A stretch of 56,067 nucleotides of DNA from Thermoplasmata archaeon (GTDB taxonomy: Archaea; Thermoplasmatota; Thermoplasmata; Thermoplasmatales; Thermoplasmataceae). The notes below the pieces were generated by a model. That model was not told where the DNA came from. It searched no databases and saw only the letters and a list, made by a program, of their open reading frames with translations. The stretch spans positions 1 to 56,067 of the forward strand of contig JAKATM010000001.1 of the NCBI GenBank assembly GCA_021818765.1, read 5' to 3'. Positions 342 to 55,085 of the stretch are shown in pieces (the first letter of the stretch is position 1; each line of letters begins with the position of its first letter). The position numbers and the translations under genes are program-made.

Positions 342-367
342 TGAAACAAAAATAACATAGTTAATAG

Positions 368-12295: not shown

Positions 12296-12299
12296 GATA

Positions 12300-28533: not shown

Positions 28534-28765
28534 ATCAGGAGATTTGGCAGAAATATTAGAATAGATTCCGGAGTCTAAATTTTCGACTCCTAATTTAGCT
28601 GCAGGTTTAGCACAGGATCAACTATATTTATAGCCATAATAGCGCTAGTGAGAAACTGCTTAAGGATTAGGGCCTAACTAATGACAACAGAAATTATCCA
28701 TTCCTGAGGTTGGAAACTGTTTATCGTCCCGGCTTAAAAGTCGGCTGTTTAGTACTAATATCTTT

Positions 28766-33378: not shown

Positions 33379-34770
33379 TCACTTTTTCCATTTGCCGTAC
33401 TTTGCAACGTGATCTTTCTTGACCCTCTTCATCTCCTGCTCAGGCAGCGAAGACAATAAATCCCAGCCTAAATCGAGAGTCTGTTCAATTGTTCTGTCCT
33501 CGTCCTTGCCCTGGTTGACGAACCTTTTCTCAAAAGATTCGGCGAATGCGAGGTAAAGCTTATCAGTCTTTCCAAGGGCCTCCTCGCCCACTATTGCGCT
33601 CAAAGACCTGAGATCCTTTCCCGTAGCATAGGCGGAATAAAGCTGATCAGAGACTCCCCTGTGATCCTCCCTTGTTCTCCCGGATCCGATACCCTGGTTC
33701 ATCAGCCTTGAAAGTGATGGAAGGACGTCAATTGGTGGATATACACCATTTCTCTGCAGGTCCCTGCTCATTGCTATCTGACCCTCCGTTATGTAACCGG
33801 TGAGATCTGGTATAGGGTGTGTCCTGTCGTCGCCTGGCATCGTTAAAATTGGTATCTGTGTGATTGAGCCGTTCTTTCCCTTGATCTTTCCAGCGCGTTC
33901 GTATATCGTGCTTAGATCGGTGTACATGTAACCTGGGTAACCCCTTCTTCCTGGCACCTCTTCCCTGGCAGATGATATCTCACGCAGCGCCTCGCAGTAA
34001 TTTGTCATGTCCGTAAGGATCACAAGTATATGCATCTCCTTCTCGTATGCAAGATATTCAGCTGCGGTGAGGGCCGCTCTCGGCAGGATGATCCTCTCCA
34101 TTGACGGATCGGAGGAAATATTGAGGAACATTACGGCCCTTGAAATTGCACCCGTTTCGGTGAACTGGTTTATGAAGAAATTTGCCTCCTCGCTTGTTAT
34201 ACCCATGGCACCGAATACAACCGCGAAGCTCTCGTCTTTCCCAACAACCTTTGCCTGCTTGGCTATCTGTGCTGCAAGCTCGTTGTGCGGCAAACCGGAG
34301 GCGGAGAAGAGAGGAAGCTTCTGCCCCCTCACAAGGGTGTTCATGCCGTCGATTGTCGATATACCGGTCTGGATAAACTCGGACGGCTCCTCTCTTGAAT
34401 ATGGGTTTATTGCGTTGCCGACAATGTCAACCTTTTCTCCCGTAATGGGTGTTCCTCCGTCTATAGGGGAGGCAAAACCGTTCAAGACGCGGCCAAGCAT
34501 GTCATCCGACACCTGTATCCTGGCAGTGGACCCCGAAAAGCGCACAGAAGTTTCTGTAGTGTTCATTCCTGTCGTTGATCCGAAAACCTGTATTACGGCC
34601 ATCCCTCTCCTTGTTTCAAGCACCTGGCCAAGCCTGGTTTCGCCGTTTTCAAGGTTTATCTGGACAAGTTCATTATATGATGCATTAGGAACCTCTTCCA
34701 CGAAAAGAAGAGGGCCAGTTATCTGTGTTATTGTCTTGTAGTTAACTTGCGGCAATCTGTTCACCTCCAA
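33379..34770 (-). CDS. atpB: A-type ATP synthase subunit B
   Basis: 463 aa. ..[15 protein letters not shown].. and ..[14 protein letters not shown].. are typical. A TTG at 34755 preceded by GGAGGTGA is an alternative start. Confidence 0.95.
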
Positions 34771-41004: not shown

Positions 41005-42714
41005 ATGGTTGATTCGTCTTCTTTCTGGTCCGAAAAGTTGAAAAACATCGAAGGAAGAAACAAAAGTGAAGATCCACAGTACGCAAAGTGGAAAAAAGAG
41101 GTTCTGGGAAAGTGGAACCCGGGATCAGAAGAAAAGGAATTCACAAATTCCTCAGGCATCCCGATAAAGGAACTTTACGGACCCGGAGATCTCTATGGAA
41201 ATCTAAACGAAAGACTCGGCTATCCTGGGACGTTTCCATTCACGCGTGGGATATACCCAGATATGTACAGGGGACGTTTTTGGACCATGCGGATGTTCTC
41301 CGGGTTCGGCACACCCGAAGATACAAACAGGCGGCTGAAGTACCTCATACAGCATGGTGAGTCCGGACTGAGCATTGCTTTTGACATGCCCACCCTCTAC
41401 GGGTATGATTGCAACAATGAAAGGGCCGAGGGCGAGGTTGGAAAGTGCGGCGTCAATGTAAGCACACTGAAAGACATGGAAGTGCTGTTTGACGGCATTG
41501 ATCTCGGGAAGGTGAGCACTTCAATGACCATTAATGCGCCTGCGATAGTCCTGCTGGCAATGTACATGGCAGTCGCAAAGAAACAGGGTGTGCCGCTTGA
41601 CAGAATTTCAGGTACAGTCCAGGCGGACATCCTGAAGGAGTACATAGCACAGAAGGAGTGGATTTTCCCACCGGAGGTGCATCTAAGGATGATACGCGAC
41701 ATGATGGTTTTCTGCACTGAAAGTGCACCACGCTGGAACTACATCAGCATCTCCGGGTATCATATCCGCGAGGCAGGGGCCAGCGCTGTCCAGGAACTTG
41801 CTTTCACCTTGGCAGATGGTTTTCATTACGTTGAGATGGGCCTGAACGCAGGGCTCAGTGCTGATGACTTTGCACCCCGCCTTTCATTCTTCTTCAATTC
41901 TTCCATTAACTTCTTTGAGGAAATTGCAAAGATGAGGGCCGCAAGAAGAATCTGGGCAACCATTCTCCGGGAAAAGTATGGAGCAAAGAACCCAAGAAGC
42001 ATGATGCTCAAATTCCACACCCAGACCTCGGGATACACGCTCACATGGCAACAGCCCCTGAACAATATAATCCGGACGACAATAGAGGCAATGGCAGGTG
42101 TCCTCGGAGGGACGCAGAGCCTTCATACGAACTCCTATGATGAGGCATGGGCCCTTCCTTCAGAGAAAGCGGTCAAAGTTGCGCTCAGAACGCAACAGAT
42201 TATTGCGGAGGAGTCGGGAATTGCCGATACGGTTGATCCCCTGGGAGGTTCATATTACGTGGAGTGGCTGACAGACGAGATGGAAAAACAGGCATATTCT
42301 TACTTTGACAGGATAGATAAGGCAGGCGGTATACTGAAAGCGATCAAGACAGGCTACATCCAGAAGGAAATTGCCAATACATCCTACAGGAGGCAGCTGA
42401 GGATAGAGGAGGGAAAGGAGATAATGGTTGGCGTAAACAAATACGTCGAAGAGAACGAGCCTCCGATAAAGATACTCAGGATAAGCAAGAAGGCACAGCT
42501 TTCACAGAGGAAGAGGCTGAATGACATCCTGGCATCAAGGGACCAGGAGAAAGTAAGGCGCTCCTTGGAAAGGCTTGAGGATGCAATGAAGGATGAAAAC
42601 ATCAACCTGATGCCTTACATGATCGAGGCAGTTGAATCGTATGCAACAATTGAGGAGATAAGCAACATAGGTAGGAGGTTATATGGCGGCTGGAAAGAAC
42701 CTGTCATTGTTTAG
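41005..42714 (+). CDS. Methylmalonyl-CoA mutase, large (substrate-binding) subunit
   Basis: 569 aa. ..YPGTFPFTRGIYPDMYRGRFWTMRMFSGFGT.. and ..ISISGYHIREAGA.. are hallmark MCM barrel motifs. Confidence 0.95.
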   Translation: MVDSSSFWSEKLKNIEGRNKSEDPQYAKWKKEVLGKWNPGSEEKEFTNSSGIPIKELYGPGDLYGNLNERLGYPGTFPFTRGIYPDMYRGRFWTMRMFSGFGTPEDTNRRLKYLIQHGESGLSIAFDMPTLYGYDCNNERAEGEVGKCGVNVSTLKDMEVLFDGIDLGKVSTSMTINAPAIVLLAMYMAVAKKQGVPLDRISGTVQADILKEYIAQKEWIFPPEVHLRMIRDMMVFCTESAPRWNYISISGYHIREAGASAVQELAFTLADGFHYVEMGLNAGLSADDFAPRLSFFFNSSINFFEEIAKMRAARRIWATILREKYGAKNPRSMMLKFHTQTSGYTLTWQQPLNNIIRTTIEAMAGVLGGTQSLHTNSYDEAWALPSEKAVKVALRTQQIIAEESGIADTVDPLGGSYYVEWLTDEMEKQAYSYFDRIDKAGGILKAIKTGYIQKEIANTSYRRQLRIEEGKEIMVGVNKYVEENEPPIKILRISKKAQLSQRKRLNDILASRDQEKVRRSLERLEDAMKDENINLMPYMIEAVESYATIEEISNIGRRLYGGWKEPVIV

Positions 42715-43135
42715 GGACAAGCCGGTGAAAGTTCTGCTGGCCAAGCCTGGCATTGATGGCCATGATCGCGGTATGTTTGTCCTGGCAAAGGCATTCAGGG
42801 ATGCAGGAATGGATGTCCTTTACGCAGGTCTTTTGCCGACGCCAGAAGAGGTCGTCGACACAGCGATAAATGAGGATGTCGATGTCATTGCGCTCAGTCT
42901 CCTGAATGGAGCTCATCTTGTTGTTTTCAAGAAGGTCGCTGATCTCATGAAGAAGAGAGGGATAGACGATATAGCCATAGTTGGCGGTGGCACAATACCT
43001 GATGCCGACCGACCAAAGCTTGAGAAACTCGGCATAACTGGAAACTATGGCCCAGGAACTCCACTGAAGACAATTATTGATCATATCATGATGAGAGCGG
43101 AAGAGGCCAGGTCCAGGAAACTGGGGATCGCATGA
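42683..43135 (+). CDS. Methylmalonyl-CoA mutase, small cobalamin-binding subunit
   Basis: B12-binding motif KVLLAKPGIDGHDRGMFVLAKAF (DxHxxG). ATG 42683 overlaps the large-subunit gene by 32 nt. TTG 42707 or GTG 42725 are alternative starts. Confidence 0.9.
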   Translation: MAAGKNLSLFRDKPVKVLLAKPGIDGHDRGMFVLAKAFRDAGMDVLYAGLLPTPEEVVDTAINEDVDVIALSLLNGAHLVVFKKVADLMKKRGIDDIAIVGGGTIPDADRPKLEKLGITGNYGPGTPLKTIIDHIMMRAEEARSRKLGIA

Positions 43136-44088
43136 CCCGGACACCGGAGGAGATTGTGGATGGGATTCGCGCAGGCGATATCCGTTCTATATCCAGGGCA
43201 ATAACACTTGTGGAGGATCATAACTCGCTCATAACAGGACGCAAGATCATCAAATCAATATACGGAATGACGGGCAAAGCAGGAATAATTGGTATAACCG
43301 GACCACCTGGAGTTGGGAAGAGCACAATCATCGGGAACCTCTCTTCTATGCTCAAGTCAACGGGCAAAAGGGTTGCCGTGATAGCAATCGATGCATCCAG
43401 CCCGTTCACAAACGGTTCATTCCTGGGAAACCGAATCAGGATGCAGGACAAGCTGTATCGGGACGGAATATACATGCGGTCTCTTTCAAGCAGGGGTTCA
43501 AGCGGTGGCCTGTCAAGAAGCACATGGGATGCAGTTCGCGTGCTCGATGCCGCCGGTTTCGACAGGATCATCGTGGAGACAGTAGGTGCCGGCCAGGCTG
43601 ATCTTGACATACTGGGCATGGCGCATACCATTGCAGTCGCACTTGCTCCCGGCCTGGGTGACGAGATTCAAGCAATCAAGGCAGGTTTGATGGAGATTGC
43701 CAGTATTTTTATCATAAACAAGATGGATCGAGACGGTGCTTTCATGGCCATGAAAGACATAGAGGACAGCCTCGCCCTCACACCCCAGAATGAGTGGAAG
43801 ATACCTGTGGTGGGGCTTAATTCGATAAACCTCGAAGGGTATGAAGAACTTATAGCCGATATAGAGAACCATCTTGCATTTGTTAGAAAGAGCCCTGTAA
43901 ACGCAAAAAGGCGCTTCTTCCATGAGGTGAAGGCAGCCCTTATGGCAGAATCCGAATTGAGGATCAATGCGCTGACAGAGAGTTCAATGTCGGGGCTGAC
44001 CGATCTTGAGAGAGATGTAAGGAACAAGGTGGATCCATACACGGTGGCGGAAGAGATATCAAAATCGGTGCTTGGCGACATTGCATAA
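43132..44088 (+). CDS. meaB: Methylmalonyl-CoA mutase-associated G3E GTPase (MeaB/ArgK)
   Basis: 318 aa. P-loop GITGPPGVGKST, ..ETVGAGQ.. and NKMD. ATGA overlap with the preceding gene. Confidence 0.9.
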   Translation: MTRTPEEIVDGIRAGDIRSISRAITLVEDHNSLITGRKIIKSIYGMTGKAGIIGITGPPGVGKSTIIGNLSSMLKSTGKRVAVIAIDASSPFTNGSFLGNRIRMQDKLYRDGIYMRSLSSRGSSGGLSRSTWDAVRVLDAAGFDRIIVETVGAGQADLDILGMAHTIAVALAPGLGDEIQAIKAGLMEIASIFIINKMDRDGAFMAMKDIEDSLALTPQNEWKIPVVGLNSINLEGYEELIADIENHLAFVRKSPVNAKRRFFHEVKAALMAESELRINALTESSMSGLTDLERDVRNKVDPYTVAEEISKSVLGDIA

Positions 44089-44156
44089 TTATTTCTTTAG
44101 CGCTGTAGCGCTTTAAAGGATCAGGAATAGTATCTAAGGAATAGGCGAACGCTGGA

Positions 44157-44819
44157 TCAGGCTTTTATTCTCCTGCTCCTCCGCTTACTCAGGTCCTTGA
44201 CTATAGCCTGGTATTTTGGGCTCTCTTTTGTATAGCTATCAAGATTAGCAATGAATTTAGCGCTGTCCAGAACGTTAAAGCCTACGTTAATGAAGTCCCT
44301 TATATTTGCCTCCTGCACCTCGCTCGTTTTTGAAGAGATGCAGTCCTGGATTATGACCGTATCAAAATCGTTCATGTCGGCATCATATGCAGTTGCCCTT
44401 ATGCAGTTTGGCGTTTGGGTTCCGGTTATAGCAACAGCGTCAACCCGAAGTCTCCTGAGAATAAGATCAAGTTCAGTGCGGAAAAATGCGCTCCATTTCT
44501 TCTTAACTATAACGTAGTCACCGTTTTCCGGCTTAAGTGGACCATAGAACTCTCCGGATGTCGGTCCGGTGGAACTTATTGATAATGGCCTTCCGTTGTC
44601 ATTCCAGAATTTCCACCGGCTTACCTCTACATCGGATCCATCGTCCCTATATCCTCTTGCAATGAAAAAGATCGGTATTCCCTTGCTCCTGCATGCCTCT
44701 ATTACCATCTTTATTCTTGGAACAGTTTCCGTTGCCCCGGGGACGCAGAGCGGCGAGTCTTTTTCAACAAATGCATTGATCATGTCAATAACGATAAGAG
44801 CTATCATATTGCACCTCAA
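44157..44819 (-). CDS. Isochorismatase-family cysteine hydrolase (amidase-like)
   Basis: 220 aa. ..IALIVIDMINAF.. (catalytic Asp region) and ..VAITGTQTPNCIRATAYDA.. (catalytic Cys), as in nicotinamidase, N-carbamoylsarcosine amidase and RutB-type enzymes. Confidence 0.8.
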   Translation of the reverse strand: MRCNMIALIVIDMINAFVEKDSPLCVPGATETVPRIKMVIEACRSKGIPIFFIARGYRDDGSDVEVSRWKFWNDNGRPLSISSTGPTSGEFYGPLKPENGDYVIVKKKWSAFFRTELDLILRRLRVDAVAITGTQTPNCIRATAYDADMNDFDTVIIQDCISSKTSEVQEANIRDFINVGFNVLDSAKFIANLDSYTKESPKYQAIVKDLSKRRSRRIKA

Positions 44820-44900
44820 TAGTTATCCCTGATGGCAATTTCAATCTTATGCAGTCGAGATTCATGAATATATGACAACATATGAAATTTCAAACCGACA

Positions 44901-45686
44901 TCAATAAAGGAAATTAGAGGCAGTGTAATACATGCCTGCAACCATGTCAAATCCTGAGGTGTGACCGATTCTTTTCAGGTCAAAGATCTTGTCATCCGTG
45001 TTAGCTCCGCAGTCCATTGCATGAAGTACTTCCAGTAGTGGCTGCGGGAAATAACCGTCAAGTCCGTCCAGAAGCATAGTTCTCGAAAATGCATTATTAT
45101 ATCTGGATATAAGAGGGCGAAGACTTTCAGTGCTAAGTCCAGTAAGCTGCATTACGGCAATAGATCCCAGAATAAAGTCATCCCCGGAGGGTGTCAACCC
45201 GAACCCGATTCCCAAAAGAGTTCTCGTGGCATCCTCTACCGATCTGCACGTTCGAATCCTCTTCGCCTGTTCTTCCAGGACAGCTGCCTCAAATCCTTCC
45301 GCTGGTCGTTCAACGATATATCCTTCGGCTAAAAGGACAGCACCCATTATGCTTCTTTCCCGGGGAATAATGTGATTCCTGAGCGAGTTCCTGATAGCCA
45401 AGGTACTTGCTCCGCCTTCTGGATGGAGAGCGAGGTCAATCCTGTTAGTCATGAGGGCTTCAAAGCTGTCGGTATGCAGTATGTCGCCGTCGAATTCTGC
45501 ATTGCTAATCGCTGGAATCCGATCCGTATCCAGGACAACTGATGATGCCGTGAGGATACCTTTCCTATTTAGAAGAGTGACCACGCGTCCACCAAACTCA
45601 AGGTTAACTGCCCTCAATGAACTGTGAAGAATGCTTCCAGTGCCGGAGGGTGGGGCTCGAAGACCGGTTTTCAGAACTTCAATCAT
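44901..45686 (-). CDS. DUF2877 protein (E. coli YlbF/AllH-like)
   Basis: 261 aa. ..LLGIGFGLTPSGDDFILG.. and ..IGHTSGFDMVAG.. match my recollection of the DUF2877 signature. ATGA overlap with the DUF1116 gene. Confidence 0.65.
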   Translation of the reverse strand: MIEVLKTGLRAPPSGTGSILHSSLRAVNLEFGGRVVTLLNRKGILTASSVVLDTDRIPAISNAEFDGDILHTDSFEALMTNRIDLALHPEGGASTLAIRNSLRNHIIPRERSIMGAVLLAEGYIVERPAEGFEAAVLEEQAKRIRTCRSVEDATRTLLGIGFGLTPSGDDFILGSIAVMQLTGLSTESLRPLISRYNNAFSRTMLLDGLDGYFPQPLLEVLHAMDCGANTDDKIFDLKRIGHTSGFDMVAGMYYTASNFLY

Positions 45687-46921
45687 AGACCATATGCTGC
45701 TGCGTACTCCTTCAGGGCATCATTGAAAGCTTTGAGTGGTGGATGCGATATTCCACCTCCGATCTGCCCTATGCCAGCTTGCTTGTGTGCTATTCCCGTG
45801 TTAATCGTTGGTAATATATTTGTCTCGTTCACCTTCAGTATGTCAATACCGAGAGGTGCACCACGGAAATCCATTGCCGGAATCAAGATATCCTTGCTCT
45901 GTCCGTACGTTATCTTGTAACCAAGCTCCGTCGCATGGATTGCATCTTTCACAGTTCCGCCCACAAACCTCGTAACTGATGGGGCGGCTGCTGAAGACAA
46001 CCCTCCAAGGCCAAGCGTTTCCATTATGGCGCTGTCGCCAAAGTCTCCGGCAGCATCTTTCTGGCTGAAACCTGCGAAAAAGAGACCGACAGGCGGTTCA
46101 ACCCTTCCGGTGAACCATTTTCCCTTCAGTCCACTGACCTGTATACCGAAATTGACGCCGTTCCTGGTCATCCTTGTAACAACTGTGGAATACTTGATCC
46201 CATCTGCGGGGTCTGCAAGTGCTTTCATTGCCGGCATTGCAAGGTTCAGGAAAAATTGCTCCCTCTCGGCAATGAATTTAAAAATTTCCCTGGCATTAGG
46301 AAGCTCTAGAAGATTCCCAGATATGGCTGACAGGAATAACAGAGACGATGCCCTGTATCTCTGGTGAAGCTCGTCTCCCATCTGAACACCCTCGGCTGCG
46401 ATGTTCTTCAGGTCAACAGGGTTTTTCTTTACAACTTCCTTAAGCGCCGGACCTAATTTCTCGTTCATCCAGTTCAGGCGCTCCAATACTTCCTTTCCAG
46501 TAGCTCCGAACCTAAGGATCTTTCCCCTGCCCTCATGAAGGTTGCAGTAGGTCCTGTTCCCAAATTCAGGGTTCTCTATCACAGCGACGTACATTCCAGA
46601 AGTTGTTATTCCTGCCATCGGGCCGACTGAGTTCATCTCATGGCAGGGCTTGAATTCAAAATCACCCTTCCTTGCCATTTTATCCGCCTGCTCCAGGCTA
46701 TCTGCCTTGCCTTCGAACATTAAGGCACCCTGCACCGCTGCTTTCATTGGATCGATCATGTCAGCATATGCAATCGGTGGACCTGCATGCAGAATGGTGT
46801 TTTCCTTCATACCTGGAATAACCTTTCCAGCGTAATTGAAATCTCTCAGCATCGCTTTGCCCCTGTTCATAATGTCAAATGCCTTCTTGTTTGCCTTCTC
46901 TATTTCATCACTAACATCCAT
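45683..46921 (-). CDS. DUF1116 protein (E. coli YlbE/AllG-like)
   Basis: 412 aa. N-terminus ..ANKKAFDIMNRGKAMLRDFNYAGKVIPGMKENTILHAGPPI.. resembles YlbE-family proteins. It lies between the fdrA and DUF2877 genes, as in enterobacterial fdrA-ylbE-ylbF. Confidence 0.7.
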   Translation of the reverse strand: MDVSDEIEKANKKAFDIMNRGKAMLRDFNYAGKVIPGMKENTILHAGPPIAYADMIDPMKAAVQGALMFEGKADSLEQADKMARKGDFEFKPCHEMNSVGPMAGITTSGMYVAVIENPEFGNRTYCNLHEGRGKILRFGATGKEVLERLNWMNEKLGPALKEVVKKNPVDLKNIAAEGVQMGDELHQRYRASSLLFLSAISGNLLELPNAREIFKFIAEREQFFLNLAMPAMKALADPADGIKYSTVVTRMTRNGVNFGIQVSGLKGKWFTGRVEPPVGLFFAGFSQKDAAGDFGDSAIMETLGLGGLSSAAAPSVTRFVGGTVKDAIHATELGYKITYGQSKDILIPAMDFRGAPLGIDILKVNETNILPTINTGIAHKQAGIGQIGGGISHPPLKAFNDALKEYAAAYGL

Positions 46922-46926
46922 TTACA

Positions 46927-47088
46927 TCACTTCCTTCCTAGTTTCTTCAATATTGATGATATGTCCTTATCTATCTTGGCTGGGGGAGACCAGTCCAGAT
47001 TATAGTGCTCTATTCCCTGGTCCTCCAGCGGTTTCACAAACCAGCTTGTTCCGACGTTAAAAACTTTCAGTTTCTTTTCCTCTTTCAT
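46927..47088 (-). CDS. Unannotated 53-aa ORF between fdrA and the DUF1116 gene (possible detached FdrA C-terminal segment)
   Basis: Hand translation gives MKEEKKLKVFNVGTSWFVKPLEDQGIEHYNLDWSPPAKIDKDISSILKKLGRK. The ATG at 47088 is preceded by GAGGTGA, which overlaps the fdrA stop. Its own stop lies 5 nt before the DUF1116 ATG. Under 60 aa, so not in the ORF track. Confidence 0.55.
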   Translation of the reverse strand: MKEEKKLKVFNVGTSWFVKPLEDQGIEHYNLDWSPPAKIDKDISSILKKLGRK

Positions 47089-47093
47089 TTTGT

Positions 47094-48557
47094 TCACCTC
47101 ATCAGGCTTGCAGCATACTCAGCTGCCCTTGCTGCTGATCTGAACACTACGACGCCTTTATCTTCAAGCCTTTTTCTAATCGACTGGTACCCCTGACTAT
47201 CTCTCTCTGTTCCGCAGATCGATGCGACTAAAACCGGTCCCTCATTCATCTTGTCAAGACCTGCTATAGGATCTTGAGCGGAACCGTAGCCAAGGATGAT
47301 GTCGAAAAGTATGACTCTGACATCCTTGCGATTACTATCCCTTACGAGGAAAGAGTTCCTGGAAACTGGGTCGATCATTGGATGTGGCTTTCCAGCAACG
47401 TACTCCTCAGCGCCGGTATCAATGCACACATTCAGTTTGTCGAAATCCTTTTCGACCTTGTATTGGTTGTCTGTAGGGGCGTTTGAATAGACATGCACTC
47501 CTTTCTCATGAAGGATGGCCTGTGCCTGGTAACACAGACTTCCGCCGACGAAAAAACCTCGAAGTAGTTTTCTCTCTTTTCCGGGTTCCTTGACCTTCGG
47601 GAAGGCCTCCTGTTGAACCTTGTCTCCTTTACCAATCTTGTTCATGAGGTGGGATACGGCATCATCTATGTTACCTGTTACATACGTGTTACCAGAGGTA
47701 TATTGCTTATCGCTTCCTAGAGAGATGAACACTGAAGGTATGTTACCCATGGATTCGAGCAGTATCCTTTGAACGGAGGGATCCGGTTTTTTGCACACAA
47801 GTGCAATTGCAGAGCATCGTTCTTTTAGAAAATTTAGCGCCTGCTTTGACATAATACCATTTATCGACTCCTTTAGGTCATTACTTCCAACACCGATAGC
47901 ATAAGAAACACCCAATCCGTTTCTGTCCATTAAAACTGACAGCTCCTGGATGCCTGTTCCAGATGATCCTATTATGCCTATGTCACCAGTTGTCCCAAGT
48001 GCGTTGGAGAATCCCAGTCCCTTTCCTTGTATGATAGATGTTCCGCAATCCGGACCCATCACAAAAAGACCCTTGCTGGCACCCTTAGATTTGAGTTTTA
48101 GCTCCTGTTCAATAGGAACGTTGCTGCTGAATATATGAACATTTGCACCAGAATCAAGGCTCTTATCCGCGACATCATAGGCATACTCGCCGGGTGTTGA
48201 TATAAAGACCACTGGAAAATCCTCTGTAGAAATCAGGTCCGGCAGGCCGTCAAGGGTGTAGCTGGCCTTATGCTGGACAATACCTGTATCTATCAGGTTG
48301 ATAGCGCTTTTTATTGCCTCTTCGCATATCTGATCCGAGTTAGCTTCAACTGCAATGATTATCGAATTGCCGCTAATGCCTGATGGGGGGTGAAAACCGG
48401 CCATCGCCAGAAATGAAATGTTTTCGGCTGTTGCAACCATACAACTGGCCTTGGATATGCCTTGAATCTTTTCTATCTCCCTGCTGATCTGCATCAGCAG
48501 TACCGAATCAATATATCTTCCCTCTATTACATGATATTTCTCTTTCAAATTTACCAC
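47094..48557 (-). CDS. fdrA: FdrA-family protein (acyl-CoA synthetase/succinyl-CoA synthetase-alpha-like fold; AllF-like)
   Basis: 487 aa with a GTG start. ..YIDSVLLMQISREI.., ..MGPDCGTSII.G..LGF.N.., ..IGIIGSSGTGIQE.. and ..GKPHPMIDP.. match FdrA-family features as I recall them. Confidence 0.75.
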   Translation of the reverse strand: MVNLKEKYHVIEGRYIDSVLLMQISREIEKIQGISKASCMVATAENISFLAMAGFHPPSGISGNSIIIAVEANSDQICEEAIKSAINLIDTGIVQHKASYTLDGLPDLISTEDFPVVFISTPGEYAYDVADKSLDSGANVHIFSSNVPIEQELKLKSKGASKGLFVMGPDCGTSIIQGKGLGFSNALGTTGDIGIIGSSGTGIQELSVLMDRNGLGVSYAIGVGSNDLKESINGIMSKQALNFLKERCSAIALVCKKPDPSVQRILLESMGNIPSVFISLGSDKQYTSGNTYVTGNIDDAVSHLMNKIGKGDKVQQEAFPKVKEPGKERKLLRGFFVGGSLCYQAQAILHEKGVHVYSNAPTDNQYKVEKDFDKLNVCIDTGAEEYVAGKPHPMIDPVSRNSFLVRDSNRKDVRVILFDIILGYGSAQDPIAGLDKMNEGPVLVASICGTERDSQGYQSIRKRLEDKGVVVFRSAARAAEYAASLMR

Positions 48558-48619
48558 CTGAATGCAGAATTAGATAGTATTGCAATTCCATACATAATCT
48601 TAATATGAAAAATATTTAA

Positions 48620-48637
48620 GTGGATCACAAGATCCAC
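48620..48637 (-). promoter_or_regulatory. 7-bp hairpin followed by an A/T tract between the membrane gene and fdrA
   Basis: GTGGATC-ACAA-GATCCAC. On the coding (minus) strand it is followed by TTAAATATTTTTCATATTA. This could be a partial terminator or attenuator, or the A/T tract could be a TATA box for fdrA. Confidence 0.25.
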
Positions 48638-48670
48638 CGTACCTTTGTTGCACTGACAAGGAATGCGCTA

Positions 48671-49228
48671 CTAGGCAGGTACCTCCTTGATCATAGCCAT
48701 CCTTACCTGAAGGTATCCGAAAATCGGCCCTATAGCGTTAACCACGAAAGATGAGATGAAGGCCGCGTAGATATTCCCAGGTATAAAGCCAAAGCCGCCA
48801 AAGTAAGTGCTGAAGAATGTTGCAAACCCATAGAATATGGCAGGCGTATATTTTATCGGATTCCAGTATCTGGTGCCCCATAGTATAGGCTGGTTTACCA
48901 GGAAGATGATTATCCCATCATAGAAAATCATTAATGGAAGGTTTGCAGCATGCGGGTTAACTATATTCATCAGGGAGCCACCGGCAAATCCCCAAATGTC
49001 TCCCCAAAGTATGGCCACATACATCTTCTTGAATGTTGGCATTGCCTGCCCCTTTCCACCTCCGCCTGCGGCAAAATATCCTGCCCATGTGATGAACACA
49101 CCCCAGGGCGGGAACATCAGGGCATAAGGTTTGGGAAGTACCCCTGAGATTACAAACGCTGCCGTCAATCCAGCCAAAAAGGCTCCAGTTATAGCTGTCG
49201 GTATTATTTCCTTTGTTTTTGTTGCCAC
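48671..49228 (-). CDS. Polytopic membrane protein, tentatively DUF1097 (YcdZ-like)
   Basis: 185 aa with about 5-6 TM helices. ..ITWAGYFAAGGGGKG.. resembles the W-x-G-F..YFA..GG-x-KG segment I recall from E. coli YcdZ. It lies 7 nt downstream of the amidohydrolase gene. Confidence 0.45.
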   Translation of the reverse strand: MATKTKEIIPTAITGAFLAGLTAAFVISGVLPKPYALMFPPWGVFITWAGYFAAGGGGKGQAMPTFKKMYVAILWGDIWGFAGGSLMNIVNPHAANLPLMIFYDGIIIFLVNQPILWGTRYWNPIKYTPAIFYGFATFFSTYFGGFGFIPGNIYAAFISSFVVNAIGPIFGYLQVRMAMIKEVPA

Positions 49229-49235
49229 TACTCTA

Positions 49236-50486
49236 TCACATCCAGTTTTTGAGCTCTAAAAGCTCGCTTCTGTAGACTACTTTTCCTTTTTTGATAACGT
49301 ATTTCCTCACGGGAACATCGAGGAATATATCAGACATTGCCTTTGTTCCTAGCACGACCAGGTCGGCTTGTTTTCCAACTGCCATTCCGTAATTGTCGGA
49401 TATCCTGAGTATCTTTGCTGCATTCTCTGTTATCATCTTAAGAAGCAATTTCTGATCAGATATGGAACCAAGCTGCGCTGCGTGCTCGAATAGTGAACCT
49501 ATCATCAACAGGTCTCCCCTTCCGAAAGGCGTGAAGGCATTTCTGATGTTGTTTGAAGAGAAAGCCACGTTTACACCACCATCGACAAACGGTTTTGGAT
49601 TTATGACTCCTCTCCTGACCTTATTAACGTCCCCTCTGCCGCTCAGGTACATGTCGGTTGCCGGCAGCGGCACTATGTTGATGCCTGCTTTTGCCATCCT
49701 TGCGATTGTATCTTTCAAAAGTGCAGGATCAATACTTGATAGCGAGGTCATGTGCCCAACTGTGACTCTTCCCTGGTAACCTTCCTTTATCGTCTTTTCT
49801 ATTATGTAATCAATGGATCTATATCTGAGATCATCCGGATTATCTCCGAAGTCAGCATGGAAGTCGAGGTCCTTTTTATACTTCCTGGCAAGACCGAATA
49901 CGAGATCAACGTGCTTCTTCGTGTCTTCGTATGAATTCTCGTTATAAGGACAGCCCCCTACGACGTCTGCGCCGAGTTTCATGGCCTCTTCGAGAATTTC
50001 GAACGCCCCAGGCAGCTTGATTATTCCCTCCTGTGGGAAAGCCACCACCTGCATATCGACGGCATTAGCGTATTCCTTCTTGAGCTGAAGCATGACCTTG
50101 AAGCCTGTCAGTCCACCAAGAGGATCCGTGTCCGGATGCGCCCTTACATAAGTAGTGCCGTGTGCGATTAGCATTTCAAGCACAGCCCGGGATCTGGCAA
50201 GGACTTCATCGTACTGGAATCCTTTCTTCAGTTCACCAGTTATTTTGATTGCGCCTGCAAGCGTTCCCTCTAGATTTGGTTTAACTCTCTCTAGCAGTGC
50301 CTTGTCCAGATGAATGTGGCTTTCGATAAAAGACGGGACAACCACATCGCCGTTTACGTCTATTACATTGGCCGCGGACAAATTCTTGTCGATCTTAGAT
50401 ATCTTTCCTCCTGATATCCCAATATCAACCAAGTCCTTGTCGTCGTCAATTCTAGCCCTTTTTATAACGAGGTCAAAACCTGTCAT
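49236..50486 (-). CDS. Amidohydrolase-superfamily enzyme, cytosine deaminase (CodA)/AtzC-like
   Basis: 416 aa. ..VVPSFIESHIHLDKALL.. (HxH metal site followed by LDK/T as in CodA), ..DFHADF.., ..VTVGHMTSL.. and the late Asp region ..VAFSSNNIRNAFTPFG... Confidence 0.8.
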   Translation of the reverse strand: MTGFDLVIKRARIDDDKDLVDIGISGGKISKIDKNLSAANVIDVNGDVVVPSFIESHIHLDKALLERVKPNLEGTLAGAIKITGELKKGFQYDEVLARSRAVLEMLIAHGTTYVRAHPDTDPLGGLTGFKVMLQLKKEYANAVDMQVVAFPQEGIIKLPGAFEILEEAMKLGADVVGGCPYNENSYEDTKKHVDLVFGLARKYKKDLDFHADFGDNPDDLRYRSIDYIIEKTIKEGYQGRVTVGHMTSLSSIDPALLKDTIARMAKAGINIVPLPATDMYLSGRGDVNKVRRGVINPKPFVDGGVNVAFSSNNIRNAFTPFGRGDLLMIGSLFEHAAQLGSISDQKLLLKMITENAAKILRISDNYGMAVGKQADLVVLGTKAMSDIFLDVPVRKYVIKKGKVVYRSELLELKNWM

Positions 50487-50575
50487 ATTTCCCCTCCGGG
50501 ATTAAGTATTTTCAGCATGTATATTGAATTTTGTATTAGACCAGTTCAATGCCGGCATAAACATGCGTGTCATTC

Positions 50576-50584
50576 ACTGTCAGT
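50576..50584. promoter_or_regulatory. Palindromic 9-mer ACTGTCAGT, copy 1, in the divergent promoter region
   Basis: ACTG-T-CAGT with flanking ATAT. It forms an inverted pair with the copy at 50761-50769: the reverse complement of copy 1 plus flank, ATATACTGACAGT, versus TTATACTGTCAGT. Confidence 0.3.
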
Positions 50585-50760
50585 ATATCATCATTCAGGG
50601 TTGGCTCTTTAGAATGTGATTTTATTATTATATTTGACCATAGATAAAACAATGAAATAAGATCAAGTGCGATACGACAATCGACGACAATTATATTAGG
50701 TTTATAGTAATTATAAACACGAATTTTCAATTTTAATTGCTTTTATCCAAAGTATATTAT

Positions 50761-50769
50761 ACTGTCAGT
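50761..50769. promoter_or_regulatory. Palindromic 9-mer ACTGTCAGT, copy 2
   Basis: Identical 9-mer 185 nt from copy 1. It lies upstream of the carbamate kinase TATA-like box (AAATATTTAAA, about 50838-50848). Confidence 0.3.
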
Positions 50770-50885
50770 TTCAATGGTCGCCCAGCTTCCAGATCCGCAG
50801 AATTATGAAGAAAAGAGAACATTCCAGTTCCAGATCAAATATTTAAACCCGGCCGTATTGGGCTAACTTCTCATTGGGATCAATT

Positions 50886-51821
50886 ATGGAAAGAATCGTG
50901 ATAGCTTTTGGAGGAAACGCTCTTTTGAGGAGCGGGGACAAGGCGACGTATGAAATTCAGTTGAAAAGAGCAAAAGAAGCATTCGAGAAGCTTGCAAACG
51001 TTATCCAGAACAACGAAGTGGTGATTTCCCACGGAAACGGCCCTCAGGTTGGAGGGATACTGCTCCAGAATGAAGCGTCGAAGAATATCACTCCATCATT
51101 ACCGCTACATTCATGCGGAGCAATGTCACAAGGGCTCATTGGAGAAATACTTCTTAACGCATATGATTCGGTAAGGTCACGGATTGGCTTTGAAAAGAAT
51201 GCTTCAGTAATAGTGACAAGAACTCTTGTCGATAAAAATGATCCCGCTTTTACGAACCCGAGTAAACCGATTGGCCCATTCTATAAGAAAGAAGAGGCAG
51301 AGGAACTTGCAAGAATTAATGACTGGATTGTAAGGGAAGAAAAAGGAAAAGGCTATCGCAGGATAGTCGCATCTCCTCGGCCGCTGGAGATTGTGGAAAG
51401 ACCGGCGATAATATCGCTTCTTATGAGTGGGCTTCTCCCCATTGCGTCTGGGGGTGGAGGTATACCGGTAGTAAAGTCTGATCACGGGTATTCAGGTGCA
51501 GATGCAGTGATAGACAAAGATCTTGCTTCATCGTTCCTGGCAATTACACTAAAGGCACAAAGATTTGTCATTCTCACGGATGTGGAAAATGTAATTCTCG
51601 ATTTTAGAACCAGTAATGAAAAAAAGCTCGGTAGGTTATCTGCAGGAGAGCTTGATAAGTACTACAAGGAGGGCCATTTCCCTGGAGGAAGCATGGGGCC
51701 AAAGGTCAGGGCAGTTGTAGAGTTTGTTAAGAAGACGGGCGGACACGCATCAATAGGCAGCCTGGATCAAGCCGAAGATGTTGTCATCGAAAAATCAGGA
51801 ACACAGGTATTTCCCGATTAA
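50886..51821 (+). CDS. arcC: Carbamate kinase
   Basis: MERIVIAFGGNALL.., ..VISHGNGPQVG.. and ..GGGGIPV.. are carbamate kinase signatures. ATG 50886 is preferred over the TTG at 50874 used by the ORF track. Confidence 0.9.
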   Translation: MERIVIAFGGNALLRSGDKATYEIQLKRAKEAFEKLANVIQNNEVVISHGNGPQVGGILLQNEASKNITPSLPLHSCGAMSQGLIGEILLNAYDSVRSRIGFEKNASVIVTRTLVDKNDPAFTNPSKPIGPFYKKEEAEELARINDWIVREEKGKGYRRIVASPRPLEIVERPAIISLLMSGLLPIASGGGGIPVVKSDHGYSGADAVIDKDLASSFLAITLKAQRFVILTDVENVILDFRTSNEKKLGRLSAGELDKYYKEGHFPGGSMGPKVRAVVEFVKKTGGHASIGSLDQAEDVVIEKSGTQVFPD

Positions 51822-52033
51822 TTTTCTGCAAAGGAACTCCAGTAATAGCGCATCGGGTTTCTTTTCCCTTAAGCTCATCTCCGGATTTCGGGATCGATGC
51901 TTCCAGACAAACAAATAATCTGAAGGCAACCTGCATGAGTGTACATTGACATTACGCACAAGCGATTGTTCTTGAAATCCGCTAATTCCTGAAACATTAA
52001 ACTTATCATTCTTATCTGCATTTCCAGCTAAGA

Positions 52034-53023
52034 ATGACTATGCCTAGAGTTGCAATAGTTTCTCTTGGCGGGACAATTTCAATGGCCAAGAAGGTTGACG
52101 CAGGTGTGGTGCCGAACCTTGATGCGGAAAGCCTGGTAACATCTCTCCCAGAATTAAGGGCTATTGCGGAGATAAAGACAGTGCCATTCCGAATGGTTGC
52201 ATCTTCCGGCCTTAAGTTTTCTGATCTCCTTGCCTTGCGCGAGGAGTTGGATAATTTGCTCAAGAATGAGGTTGATGCTGTTGTGGTAACCCAGGGCACT
52301 GACACGATAGAGGAGACCTCTTTTCTTCTAAATCTTACTATCCAGTCAGATAAGCCGGTCGTGGTAACAGGAGCGATGAGAGACCCGACCACTCCCGGAT
52401 CTGATGGTCAAGCTAACCTTATAGCTGCCTTACGTGTAGCTGTGAGCGGCTTTACGAGTGGTCTAGGAACAGTTGTTGTAATGAACGATGATATACATCA
52501 TTCAAGATACGTCAAGAAAACCCATACATCAAACCCTGCAGCTTTCAGTTCTTTCCCGCTTGGCCCAATAGGCTGGATTTCAGAGGATCGTGTGAGGATA
52601 GCATTGAAACCGGCAACTGAAAGATTTAGGATAACAGTGGATGCGGGAAGTCCAGAAAAGGAGGTCCTTCTATTCACAGTGTCGTTAGGCGATTCCGGGA
52701 GGCTTCTCGGTCATGCGGGAGAATTTGGATACGATGGTATTATCCTGGAGGCAATGGGAGCCGGACACGTCTATCCATCGATCCTGGATACATTGGAAAA
52801 GCTAGCCTCTATAATGCCCGTTGTTTTCGCATCCAGGACAAGAAATGGGGAAGTACTTGAAAAGACCTATTCTTTCCGAGGAAGCGAAAGTGATCTGCTT
52901 AAGCGAGGCCTTATATCCGCAAGATCATTGGATCCACTAAAGGCCAGGATCCTTCTTTACCTGCTCCTAAGATCGGGAAGATCAAAGGAAGAGATCAGGA
53001 ATGTCTTCAATAACTGGACATGA
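52034..53023 (+). CDS. L-asparaginase (type I family)
   Basis: 329 aa. ..VAIVSLGGTISM.. (catalytic Thr motif) and ..VVTQGTDTIEETSFLL.. (second Thr motif). Confidence 0.85.
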   Translation: MTMPRVAIVSLGGTISMAKKVDAGVVPNLDAESLVTSLPELRAIAEIKTVPFRMVASSGLKFSDLLALREELDNLLKNEVDAVVVTQGTDTIEETSFLLNLTIQSDKPVVVTGAMRDPTTPGSDGQANLIAALRVAVSGFTSGLGTVVVMNDDIHHSRYVKKTHTSNPAAFSSFPLGPIGWISEDRVRIALKPATERFRITVDAGSPEKEVLLFTVSLGDSGRLLGHAGEFGYDGIILEAMGAGHVYPSILDTLEKLASIMPVVFASRTRNGEVLEKTYSFRGSESDLLKRGLISARSLDPLKARILLYLLLRSGRSKEEIRNVFNNWT

Positions 53024-53164
53024 TTAAATATAGTCAGGCATTGTGAAGTTTTACATGATCCCGCCACACGTCCTCGCATATACGCGTAAATGATAGAAAA
53101 AGTGTCGGGATTGTCTATCAGGATGGGATGAAACATGTTTTAAGTTTCAAACAATACTGGTTGC

Positions 53165-53611
53165 ATGAAGGTATCGTTCAGGCAGGAAAAAGGGAAAGGA
53201 TTCGTATCGACTGTTGAAGGGAAAGAGACGATCACAATAGATGACCATTATGCAAACAGGCCAGAGATCTACAGCCCGACTGAACTTCTGCTTTTTGCGG
53301 CTGGTGCATGCAGCGGACCTGATGTTCTCGGGATACTGGAGAAGATGAAGCAGCAGGTCGAAAGGTATGAGTGCGAGATATCAGGCGAGCGAATGACAGA
53401 ATTTCCAAAGATTTTCAAATTTGTGAACGTCCACTACAAAGCCTGGGGAAAGGTTAAGCCCGAGGCCCTGAAAAAGGCTGCTAACCTCTCTCTTTCAAAA
53501 TACTGTCATGTTGGAATAACACTCGCGCGAGCAGGCGTTGATGTGACATACTCCTATTCAGTGAACGGCCAGACCATTGAGGAATTTCAGCATCCTGTTA
53601 ATGAAGAATGA
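53165..53611 (+). CDS. OsmC/Ohr-family protein
   Basis: 148 aa. ..SPTELLLFAAGACSGPDVL.. and ..LSKYCHVGITL.. carry the two conserved Cys of the OsmC family. Confidence 0.8.
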   Translation: MKVSFRQEKGKGFVSTVEGKETITIDDHYANRPEIYSPTELLLFAAGACSGPDVLGILEKMKQQVERYECEISGERMTEFPKIFKFVNVHYKAWGKVKPEALKKAANLSLSKYCHVGITLARAGVDVTYSYSVNGQTIEEFQHPVNEE

Positions 53612-53645
53612 TCCCTCTATGGATCTTTGGCAAATGATGATCTGA

Positions 53646-55085
53646 TCACTTTCTTGGCCTCATTGTCGGGAAAGCAAGGAGCTCCTTGATTGAAATATTG
53701 TCAGTTAATATCATTGCAAGCCTGTCTATTGATAGGCCAATACCGGCTGTCGGGGGCATACCGAACTCGATGGCTTCCAGGAACTCCTCATCGGATGGCG
53801 GTGCCTCGGCATCTCCACGCTGTCTTTCCCTCTCCTGATCCTCAAACTTTTTCCGCTGCTCTATAGGATCTGTAAGTTCAGAATAACAGTTGCCCTCCTC
53901 CCTGCCTGCGATATATACCTCGAATCTTTCACTTAGTTTTGGGTTCCCCCTCTTATCTTTTGTGAGAGGACACATATAAGCCGGGAAGTCAAGGACGAAT
54001 GTGGGATCGCTGAGATTTGGCTTGATGTATTTATCGAAGAGCCCATCAGCAACATGATAGGCGTTGAATGTAGATGTTTTCAACCCTTCGCACCTGGCAA
54101 CTTCCCTTGACTCTTCATCAGTAAGGACCGACACGTCTATTCCTGAGAGTTTTTTAACCTCCTCGACCCAGTAGACCCTCTTGAACGGAGGGGTGAAATC
54201 AAGCTCCTTCCCCTGGTAAGTTATCTTGTAGGAACCGAATAGATTTTTGACCAGTGAGGAGAGCAGTTCCTCCGTCATGGTCATGAAGTCATTGTAATCC
54301 TTGTAAGCCTCGTAGAATTCTACCTGCGTAAATTCTGGATTATGTGTGGAATCTATATCCTCGTTCCTGAAGTCTTTACACACCTCATAGACCTTTTCCA
54401 TTCCACCTATGATTAGCCTCTTGAGGTAGAGTTCGTCAGAGACCCTGAGATAGAAATCTGCGTCAAGTGCTCTGTATCGCGTTACAAAAGGTTCTGCGTT
54501 TGCACCCCCATAGGTAGGCTGGAGAATGGGTGTTTCGAACTCAATGTAACCACGTGAATCAAGGAAATTTCGAAAGTAGCTGAGTATTTTGGCACGTGTG
54601 ATGAAATATTTCCTGATCTCGGGGTTTGCGGTAAGATCAAGATGCCTCTGCCTGTATCTCATCTCTGTGTCGCTCAGACCATGAAACTTTTCCGGCATGG
54701 GGCTCAATGATTTCGATAAAACGGTTATTTCTGCAGCTTCGATACTGATCTCCCCGCGTTTCGACTTATTTATGGTACCATAAATGCCAAGAATGTCACC
54801 CATGTCTATGAGATCGAGCAGCCCAATGGATTTCGCTGAAGTCATTTGCGGCGAGACCAGAACCTGAATCTTGTCGGATGCATCGAGAATGTCTATAAAG
54901 TAAAGCTGCCCCATGTGGCGGATGCTCATTGCCCTTCCAGCGATCGATGTCTTCCTTCCCTTCAGTGTTTCATAGTCTTTCTTGATATCGCCAGCATGCA
55001 TCTCCTGCTTGAAAGAATATGGATATGGATCTATTCCATTATCCAGCATCTTCTTTAGTTTTTCCTGCTTAAACCTGTCTATCAT
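53646..55085 (-). CDS. lysS: Lysyl-tRNA synthetase, class II
   Basis: 479 aa. N-terminal OB anticodon-binding domain (..IAGRAMSIRHMGQLYFIDI..) and a class II core (..FRNEDIDSTHNPEFTQVEFY.., ..GMPPTAGIGLSIDRLAMIL..). Confidence 0.95.
   Translation of the reverse strand: MIDRFKQEKLKKMLDNGIDPYPYSFKQEMHAGDIKKDYETLKGRKTSIAGRAMSIRHMGQLYFIDILDASDKIQVLVSPQMTSAKSIGLLDLIDMGDILGIYGTINKSKRGEISIEAAEITVLSKSLSPMPEKFHGLSDTEMRYRQRHLDLTANPEIRKYFITRAKILSYFRNFLDSRGYIEFETPILQPTYGGANAEPFVTRYRALDADFYLRVSDELYLKRLIIGGMEKVYEVCKDFRNEDIDSTHNPEFTQVEFYEAYKDYNDFMTMTEELLSSLVKNLFGSYKITYQGKELDFTPPFKRVYWVEEVKKLSGIDVSVLTDEESREVARCEGLKTSTFNAYHVADGLFDKYIKPNLSDPTFVLDFPAYMCPLTKDKRGNPKLSERFEVYIAGREEGNCYSELTDPIEQRKKFEDQERERQRGDAEAPPSDEEFLEAIEFGMPPTAGIGLSIDRLAMILTDNISIKELLAFPTMRPRK

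Follow-up and report, generated by a model that had tools for sequence, protein, structure and literature searches.

An archaeal operon for a predicted AllFGH-type carbamoyltransferase with a free-standing junction module and a CodA-like amidohydrolase of altered active site

AllFGH of Escherichia coli has been purified as an oxamate carbamoyltransferase that works with the carbamate kinase AllK (Kim & Kim 2024, PMC11326118). Several related systems are also already known, including the co-location of allFGHK and biuH in metagenome-assembled genomes of ammonia-oxidising archaea (AOA) and in comammox Nitrospira, without upstream purine genes (PMC12625717, 2025), the Klebsiella oxamate amidohydrolase HpxW (PDB 5HFT; PMC12360370), oxalate oxidoreductase (OOR) and the CodA/AtzC amidohydrolases. 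Here we describe a gene cluster in a 56,067-nt stretch of a Thermoplasmata archaeon (contig JAKATM010000001.1, positions 1 to 56,067; hereafter, the window) that encodes AllF-, AllG- and AllH-like proteins together with a small open reading frame (mini-ORF), a CodA-like amidohydrolase that we refer to as NN type, a DUF1097 membrane protein, an isochorismatase-family hydrolase and a divergently transcribed carbamate kinase. The encoded enzyme is probably an AllFGH-type carbamoyltransferase, predicted to catalyse oxalurate + Pi <-> oxamate + carbamoyl phosphate, and we consider it very probable that the cluster couples phosphorolysis of a ureide to carbamate kinase. What would set it apart from the E. 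coli system is the source of oxalurate and the fate of oxamate. The genes of the cluster and the region between its two transcription units are as follows.

49236-50486, minus strand: Amidohydro_1/3 amidohydrolase (NN type), 416 aa, first gene of the operon
48671-49228, minus strand: DUF1097 (YcdZ family) membrane protein, 185 aa; PF06496 at 54.3 bits (cutoff 24.6)
47094-48557, minus strand: AllF/FdrA-like protein, 487 aa, with CoA_binding and Ligase_CoA domains; NF004760 at E 1.6e-94
46927-47097, minus strand: mini-ORF (junction module), 56 aa (GTG start) or 53 aa (ATG at 47088)
45683-46921, minus strand: AllG/DUF1116 protein, 412 aa; PF06545 at 269.6 bits (cutoff 27)
44901-45686, minus strand: AllH/DUF2877 protein, 261 aa; PF11392 at 71.4 bits (cutoff 25)
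44157-44819, minus strand: isochorismatase-family cysteine hydrolase, 220 aa, last gene of the operon; PF00857 at 128.6 bits
50487-50873, no strand: AT-rich divergent intergenic (promoter) region
50874-51821, plus strand: carbamate kinase; TIGR00746 at 368.5 bits (equivalog cutoff 358.25)
52034-53023, plus strand: L-asparaginase; Pfam/NCBIfam family match
53165-53611, plus strand: OsmC-family protein; Pfam/NCBIfam family match

An earlier note, made from the sequence letters, had named these ten genes and their families, and all ten were confirmed by the ORF list, Pfam and NCBIfam. Profile searches gave clear matches that place the three carbamoyltransferase-like proteins in the FdrA, DUF1116 and DUF2877 families. 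The tight packing that the note described is borne out as well, with gaps of 7, 113, -4, 5, -4 and 81 nt in gene order along the minus-strand operon (a range of -4 to 113 nt), and carbamate kinase is divergent from it across an AT-rich intergenic region of 387 nt (34% GC, compared to 46% for the window). Within this region, the window and its closest relative, locus L001, have only two elements in common, a TTTAAATATTTG box on the side of carbamate kinase and, ahead of the amidohydrolase ATG, a GGAGG-type motif. Alignment of the divergent promoter regions of the window, L001 and L084 revealed a TATA-like box in addition to the GGAGG motif, but no convincing common operator. An intergenic riboswitch was rejected, as an Rfam scan of positions 43500-54000 returned no match.

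Embedding in an allantoin regulon, with allB, allC, allE and allD alongside, is a feature of E. coli that the 56-kb window does not share. Queries with E. coli AllA, AllC, AllD, AllE, AllW, Gcl and GlxK in tblastn found no match within the window, and the note was correct that allantoinase, AllC and AllD are missing from it. Its remark that no biochemical characterisation of the archaeal module was known also holds, in that literature searches found none.

Judging by its domains, AllF is a succinyl-CoA-synthetase-alpha-like subunit, with CoA_binding and Ligase_CoA both above their Pfam cutoffs and E. coli FdrA (PDB 3DMY, 3.8e-57) as its closest structure. Its match to the FdrA model NF004760 spans positions 7-493 of 555 and reaches 317 bits, below the curated cutoff of 433; the roughly 60 positions left out at the end correspond approximately to the site of the junction module in E. 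coli AllF (residues 509-555). The closest structure to AllG is PDB 3CLQ (3.9e-113), while a PDB search with AllH gave no solved relative. Identities to the E. coli proteins are 32% for AllF (33% to YahF), 46% over 414 aa for AllG (43% to YahG), 34% over 129 aa for AllH, and 40% for carbamate kinase against AllK (39% against YahI). The window proteins are thus about equally distant from two E. coli paralogue sets, AllFGHK and YahEFG-YahI.

The likeness to AllFGH-AllK extends to the three families, the F-G-H order, a module of about 50 aa, an adjacent carbamate kinase and the grouping of AllG. In contrast to E. coli, the module is a separate gene, carbamate kinase is divergent rather than downstream, allECD, allB and allA are not nearby, the host is an archaeon, and the partners are an NN-type amidohydrolase, a DUF1097 protein and an isochorismatase-family hydrolase, at identities of 32-46%. 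The second E. coli set (K-12 335925-342507, our locus L089) comprises yahE (DUF2877), yahF (FdrA-like), yahG (long DUF1116), yahI (carbamate kinase-like) and yahJ (amidohydrolase). This yahE-yahF-yahG-(yahH)-yahI-yahJ cluster likewise joins the triad to a carbamate-kinase-like gene and an amidohydrolase-superfamily gene. It differs in its H-F-G order, in a module fused to YahG, in the placement of YahG in the other AllG superclade, and in YahJ, which is 24% identical to the window amidohydrolase and retains the catalytic Glu and Asp; the latter was rejected as an orthologue on these grounds. A literature search on the yah cluster found no functional paper.

The mini-ORF (LKVFNVGTSWF...DWSPP...ILKKL) has no Pfam match, but aligns both with YahG residues 8-41 and with the N-terminal extension, about 55 aa in length, of DUF1116 proteins of the long form (465-476 aa). 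Six related loci (L002, L003, L084, L086, L088 and L094) have free-standing orthologues of 50-56 aa, and in every related archaeal locus examined they lie between allF and allG. For comparison with bacteria, we used a search of genome contigs, in which the matches listed were all bacterial AllG loci (L004-L083, 80 loci, 44-51% identity), a scope that holds for all statements below on bacterial AllG loci. A hidden Markov model (HMM) built from seven archaeal mini-ORFs detected the module in nearly all 80, with about 31 of the hits fused to the AllG N-terminus, about 14 to the AllF C-terminus, and the others free-standing or within AllF::AllG fusions. At E<=0.01 this HMM failed to recover E. coli AllF, for which a second iteration was required. 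With no E. coli sequence in its build, the second-iteration HMM scored 55.3 bits on E. coli AllF 509-555 and 61.6 bits on YahG 4-54.

These results show that the mini-ORF is a genuine module of the carbamoyltransferase. From the second-iteration score, the characterised E. coli enzyme bears the module as an AllF tail, so that the same element appears as the AllF C-terminus in E. coli, as the YahG N-terminus, and as a stand-alone gene in the archaeal clade. Because it is a separate gene there, the archaeal enzyme would consist of four polypeptides. A module of about 50 aa that may be a separate subunit matters for any attempt to reconstitute the complex or to solve its structure. We found no description of a free-standing junction subunit in the literature searched, nor of the NN-type branch, its pairing with DUF1097 or a Thermoplasmata version of the cluster.

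The order amidohydrolase-DUF1097-AllF-mini-AllG-AllH is repeated in L001/2, L003, L084/5, L086/7, L088 and L094, in which AllG is 62-87% identical to that of the window. Its recurrence in independent archaeal contigs argues that the arrangement is not a chance juxtaposition. These six genes are the archaeal core, to which carbamate kinase and the isochorismatase-family hydrolase are often added. A carbamate kinase gene lies next to the cluster in L001, L084, L086 and L094, and the kinases of the last three are only about 41% identical to the window's, whereas L084 resembles the window at 75% for AllG and 80% for the amidohydrolase (the latter from a cluster representative on the L084 contig). 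The low kinase identity suggests separate recruitment to the cluster, more than once. L001, L084 and L003 all keep an orthologue of the isochorismatase-family hydrolase (57-77% identity) within the cluster, and the gene takes three different positions. The L084 cluster has an extra amidase-signature (AS) enzyme.

The note had counted asparaginase among the pathway partners. Both asparaginase and OsmC adjoin the cluster only in the window and in its closest relative, L001/L002 (87% AllG identity), and are absent beside it in L003, L084, L086, L088 and L094. As they are not conserved past the closest relative, they are probably bystanders, and we rejected both as pathway members.

The L003 cluster contains three inserted genes for a 2-oxoacid:ferredoxin oxidoreductase (OFOR). 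Scores against the Moorella OOR are 334 bits for its alpha and 279 bits for its beta subunit, as opposed to 210 and 185 bits against a pyruvate:ferredoxin oxidoreductase (PFOR), and its PIRPYT motif still has the Arg, at a position occupied by Thr in the PFOR. The L003 enzyme is thus clearly closest to the Moorella thermoacetica enzyme (PDB 5C4I), which has no counterpart in the window.

Catalysis in isochorismatase-like hydrolases depends on Asp, Lys and Cys positions, and in the window protein the corresponding motifs, VIDM, VKKKWSAF and TPNCIR, align with those of PDB 3HU5, its best structural match (function unknown; 1.3e-37). The next match is N-carbamoylsarcosine amidase (CSHase; PDB 1NBA, 7.7e-21), and no curated NCBIfam model for that amidase matched the protein. 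The RutB, BiuH and PRK11440 hydrolase models each gave about 57 bits against cutoffs of 195-378; BiuH (56.8 bits, cutoff 370) and RutB (57.6 bits, cutoff 378) both failed to pass. Identification as a BiuH, RutB or CSHase equivalog was rejected, since the scores are far under the first two cutoffs and CSHase is only a distant PDB likeness. The protein is a candidate amidase for an amide product. Its position beside an AllFGH-type enzyme and carbamate kinase, without upstream purine-degradation genes, recalls the AOA and comammox clusters. These differ in that the window protein falls far below the BiuH cutoff and in that the report is silent on a CodA-like amidohydrolase, on DUF1097 and on Thermoplasmata (PMC12625717).

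According to the note, the first gene of the operon encodes a cytosine-deaminase-type enzyme. The protein has the fold of the CodA/AtzC subgroup, with E. coli cytosine deaminase (8.8e-62) and AtzC (5e-53) as top PDB matches, and in alignment to E. coli CodA it retains the HxH motif, Q156, H214 and H246. However, it passed none of three NCBIfam cytosine deaminase models (283.8, 252.3 and 209.4 bits against cutoffs of 438, 483 and 403), and the residue equivalent to E217 of cytosine deaminase is Phe, next to a 3-aa insert (HADFGDN), while those equivalent to D313/D314 are Asn-Asn (SSNNI). This coupled replacement sets a separate branch apart from the CodA/AtzC subgroup. Since the catalytic Glu217 and Asp313 are missing, the protein should not be read as a cytosine-type deaminase, and we rejected a true cytosine or creatinine deaminase.

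The replacement is not peculiar to this genome. The E217/D313-type change was present in 118 of the 120 closest homologues, including bacterial ones at 50-54% identity, and the motif was not located in the other two. We also searched 1.84 billion cluster representatives (50% identity) exhaustively and scored the best 150 for active-site positions; 54 of the 150 had Asn at position 313. Among the 53 of these that could be scored at position 217, none had Glu or Asp, and the residue was Phe in 32, Leu in 11 and Tyr in 6; representatives with Asp313, in contrast, had Glu or Asp at 217 in 66 of 87 cases. All four His were retained in 49 of 50 full-length NN-type representatives. By these criteria, the NN-type amidohydrolases are an extensive and coherent branch whose active site has been rebuilt, and not a decaying gene.

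The loss of an Asp and a Glu that are essential in cytosine deaminase, together with constant linkage to AllF-G-H in the archaeal clade, could also mean that the NN-type protein is catalytically inert, with a function in ligand binding or in the structure of a complex with the carbamoyltransferase. There is a parallel in PyrC' of Pseudomonas aspartate transcarbamoylase, an inactive dihydroorotase-like subunit. We consider this very unlikely for the window protein. The four metal and active-site His are nearly always kept, the replacement pattern is itself strongly conserved (F/L/Y at 217, N-N at 313/314), and the protein also occurs without AllF-G-H, beside HpxW-like genes or alone. In addition, TrzN presumably lacks the equivalent Asp and is nonetheless an active hydrolase, which leaves room for activity in the NN type.

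The same data bear on the names that databases give to these genes, 'cytosine deaminase' and 'acyl-CoA synthetase FdrA'. Taken at face value, the names would make the locus a set of unrelated neighbours: a pyrimidine-salvage cytosine deaminase, an acyl-CoA synthetase and an anabolic carbamate kinase. We give this reading next to no chance, as it is already contradicted by synteny and active-site data: gene order is kept across 62-87% AllG identity, the cytosine-deaminase catalytic residues are missing, and work on E. coli has established FdrA as a carbamoyltransferase subunit.

The company kept by NN-type amidohydrolases in other lineages provides a further view of their role. From 80 metagenome loci sampled for the amidohydrolase, 56 were NN type, 22 of them with at least 3 kb on both sides. 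AllF/G was nearby in 12 of the 56 (7 of the 22 well-flanked loci) and DUF1097 was adjacent in 9 of the 56; at least one of AllF/G, DUF1097, AllD, gamma-glutamyltransferase (GGT) and AS-family amidase was present in 14 of the 22. In beta-proteobacterial-type operons (L092, L096-99), the order is two-component system, GGT-family gene, amidohydrolase, DUF1097, and the GGT genes are closest to HpxW (PDB 5HFT) by summed chain scores. The Klebsiella Hpx branch shares the oxalurate/oxamate node with the archaeal cluster, and HpxW-like genes flank the amidohydrolase-DUF1097 pair in these loci. That branch is hydrolytic and gains no ATP, however, whereas the archaeal cluster, which has no HpxW-like gene in the window, is proposed to be phosphorolytic with carbamate kinase.

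In Firmicute-type loci, the NN-type amidohydrolase is the last gene of the operon. Streptococcus zalophi (L093) has the order AllF::AllG-AllH-MFS-SDF-AllD-membrane protein-amidohydrolase, with an AllD 54% identical to that of E. coli, and other loci read AllH-MFS-carbamate kinase-SDF-AllD-... (L111) and M20-AllD-class V aminotransferase-SDF-... (L107). Immediately upstream of the amidohydrolase, these loci encode a Pfam-less polytopic membrane protein of about 450 aa, probably an undescribed transporter family, whose four copies are mutually 56-78% identical and lie at the following positions.

L093:8628-9980, Firmicute-type locus: membrane protein of about 450 aa
L107:5591-6970, Firmicute-type locus: membrane protein of about 450 aa
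L111:5555-6976, Firmicute-type locus: membrane protein of about 450 aa
L112:5637-6977, Firmicute-type locus: membrane protein of about 450 aa

Each partner that recurs beside the NN-type amidohydrolase is thus either a membrane protein or one of the oxalurate/oxamate/oxalate enzymes. In the archaea, the membrane protein is DUF1097, which lies directly downstream of the NN-type gene in every locus examined, as it does in the beta-proteobacterial-type loci. The window protein shows hydrophobic segments in a crude hydropathy scan and is a small polytopic membrane protein and a probable transporter. DUF1097 has been predicted as a transporter of the CytR regulon, 'NupT' (PMC3454398), and occurs upstream of preTA-hydA in Anaerostipes (PMC11036815). 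These ties to pyrimidine and nucleoside systems would fit a small N-heterocyclic entry substrate.

To place the archaeal enzyme among AllG proteins, a distance-based neighbour-joining (NJ) tree of 100 AllG sequences was used, with a 200-replicate bootstrap on 50 of these taxa. Archaeal AllG fell together with the AllG of E. coli, that of S. zalophi and every enzyme linked to an NN-type amidohydrolase, and YahG and the AllG enzymes linked to xanthine dehydrogenase (XDH) or cyclase genes were separate from the E. coli AllG side. The AllG-versus-YahG split was recovered in 169 of 200 bootstraps and the archaeal clade in 200 of 200. We conclude with moderate confidence that archaeal AllG groups with the AllG of E. 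coli oxamate carbamoyltransferase and not with YahG. Given this placement and the accessory genes of relatives, oxalurate and oxamate are predicted as the most likely substrate pair.

The note favoured a different substrate, with the triad acting on some other carbamoyl compound derived from an imported N-heterocycle. Candidates are malonurate from pyrimidine, allophanate, biuret-derived compounds or another N-carbamoyl amide. The bacterial loci show that the AllF/G family is not restricted to allantoin catabolism, because many sit in clearly different contexts: among the 80 closest listed, neighbours included a PF04199 cyclase in 47, XDH-like Mo-enzyme subunits in 26-37, AS-family amidase in 19, xanthine/uracil permease in 18, thiolase in 17 and family III CoA-transferase in 16. 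The XDH-like genes of these clusters encode three molybdoenzyme subunits, and the cluster is apparently uncharacterised; it looks like an anaerobic N-heterocycle oxidation pathway that ends in ureide phosphorolysis. The existence of YahEFG-YahI-YahJ as a second uncharacterised set, the pyrimidine links of DUF1097, the high Km of the E. coli enzyme for oxamate (36.9 mM) and the joining of allFGHK with biuH in AOA could all be taken in the same direction. Even so, another ureide is a quite unlikely substrate for the archaeal enzyme, which lies with the clade of proven oxamate carbamoyltransferase and not with the YahG/XDH-linked clade. Moreover, the OOR-like, HpxW-like and AllD genes of relatives all indicate oxalyl compounds, and the isochorismatase-family hydrolase is far under the BiuH and RutB equivalog cutoffs. 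A literature search on ureidomalonate, malonamate and anaerobic pyrimidine clusters found nothing relevant. The enzyme thus probably still uses oxalurate and oxamate, contrary to the note.

We propose the following scheme as the most economical one that assigns every gene a role. DUF1097 would import a small external ureide or N-heterocycle, which the NN-type amidohydrolase would convert in one hydrolytic step to oxalurate or a very close N-acylurea. The four-polypeptide enzyme AllF-mini-AllG-AllH would phosphorolyse oxalurate with formation of carbamoyl phosphate and of oxamate, and carbamate kinase would use carbamoyl phosphate and ADP to yield ATP, NH3 and CO2. The isochorismatase-type cysteine amidase would then hydrolyse oxamate to oxalate with release of the second nitrogen, and in L003 the oxalate could be oxidised by the OOR-like enzyme. 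By the same logic, the beta-proteobacterial operon would replace phosphorolysis with HpxW-like hydrolytic cleavage, and the Firmicute operons would provide a second entry into the allantoin-derived oxalurate pool. Substrates, direction of flux, the role of the transporter and the assignment of hydrolases to steps are all inferred, and we put the full scheme as written at roughly 0.4. From the earlier note's idea of an uncharacterised archaeal phosphorolytic route with ATP recovery, the families, the packing and the divergent carbamate kinase stand; the roles that it gave to the CodA-like enzyme and to asparaginase and a substrate other than oxalurate probably do not.

Several observations weigh against the scheme. 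The tblastn searches of the 56-kb window found no enzyme with a known oxalurate-forming reaction, which makes the entry substrate a guess, and the literature searches found no biochemical work on archaeal members or on NN-type amidohydrolases. The amidohydrolase lacks the Asp that is general base and metal ligand in cytosine deaminase as well as the proton-shuttle Glu, and may for that reason have other chemistry, or none. Archaeal AllG branches deeply and separately, at only 46% identity to E. coli AllG, and its placement has an NJ support of 84%. In the L003 enzyme, the position of Asp116, which we take to be a switch-loop residue of OOR, is Ala. Finally, neither carbamate kinase nor an isochorismatase gene lies within 10 kb of the cluster in L088.

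The distribution of genes that makes L088 awkward for the scheme can also be read with the roles of the two hydrolases exchanged, and this is the main rival. Here, the NN-type amidohydrolase would be a new oxamate amidohydrolase (oxamate to oxalate and NH3), the isochorismatase would have a side role, and DUF1097 would import oxalurate or export oxalate, with ATP still obtained through AllF-mini-AllG-AllH and carbamate kinase. The minimal clusters (L088, L094 and L112) have no more than AllF(-mini-)G-H, the amidohydrolase and a membrane protein, in some cases with carbamate kinase, and Firmicute-type operons already cover the known oxalurate-forming steps (M20 AllC-like, class-V aminotransferase and AllD), with the amidohydrolase as the last gene. 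A change of three or four acidic active-site residues to Asn or Phe would suit the anionic oxamate, and the OOR-like genes of L003 require a source of oxalate. On the other hand, this arrangement leaves a conserved isochorismatase without a role, gives the bacterial three-gene operon GGT-amidohydrolase-DUF1097 a redundant HpxW-like gene, and sits poorly with a dedicated membrane protein beside the enzyme in every lineage, which is more typical of a first, uptake-coupled step. We consider the exchanged roles unlikely. More broadly, NN-type amidohydrolases and their dedicated transporter might funnel an unrecognised environmental ureide or N-heterocycle into oxalurate, such as parabanate or an oxidation product of purines or creatinine, an idea that we hold tentatively and regard as somewhat doubtful.

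Other genes in the window give context for the host. The window is of archaeal origin, with genes for eIF2-gamma, a Kae1-Bud32 fusion, an archaeal SAM synthetase and an intein-bearing A-type ATPase, whose catalytic subunit (34742-37585, minus strand; 947 aa) has its intein splicing domain from about residue 295 to about residue 593. Public records assign near-identical proteins to Thermoplasmata. A histidine/aromatic ammonia-lyase (3347-4837, plus strand), electron transfer flavoprotein (ETF) alpha/beta with an ETF-QO-like flavoprotein (10443-13876, minus strand), and a split methylmalonyl-CoA mutase comprising mutase, B12-binding subunit and MeaB (41005-44088, plus strand) point to a heterotroph that degrades amino acids and organic acids. 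The only tRNA gene in the window is tRNA-Pro(CGG) (367-440, minus strand). Positions 25000-29000 have a low GC content (0.385-0.42 compared to ~0.46-0.50 around them), with several Pfam-less ORFs such as 26936-27742 and 24015-24722, and this low-GC stretch is possibly a foreign island.

Identification of the AllFGH carbamoyltransferase dates only from 2024 and concerns a single organism. An archaeal lineage keeps such an enzyme, as predicted here, in a compact operon alongside carbamate kinase and without an allantoin pathway in its vicinity, which points to conservation of ATP from scavenged oxalurate-type compounds. For the amidohydrolase superfamily, proteins widely labelled 'cytosine deaminase' make up a big branch that cannot have this activity and that is genomically tied to enzymes of oxalurate, oxamate and oxalate and to dedicated membrane proteins. 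If NN-type amidohydrolases do funnel an unrecognised ureide or N-heterocycle into oxalurate, a four-subunit carbamoyltransferase and carbamate kinase would constitute, in Thermoplasmata, a new archaeal pathway of substrate-level phosphorylation on a nitrogen-rich compound.

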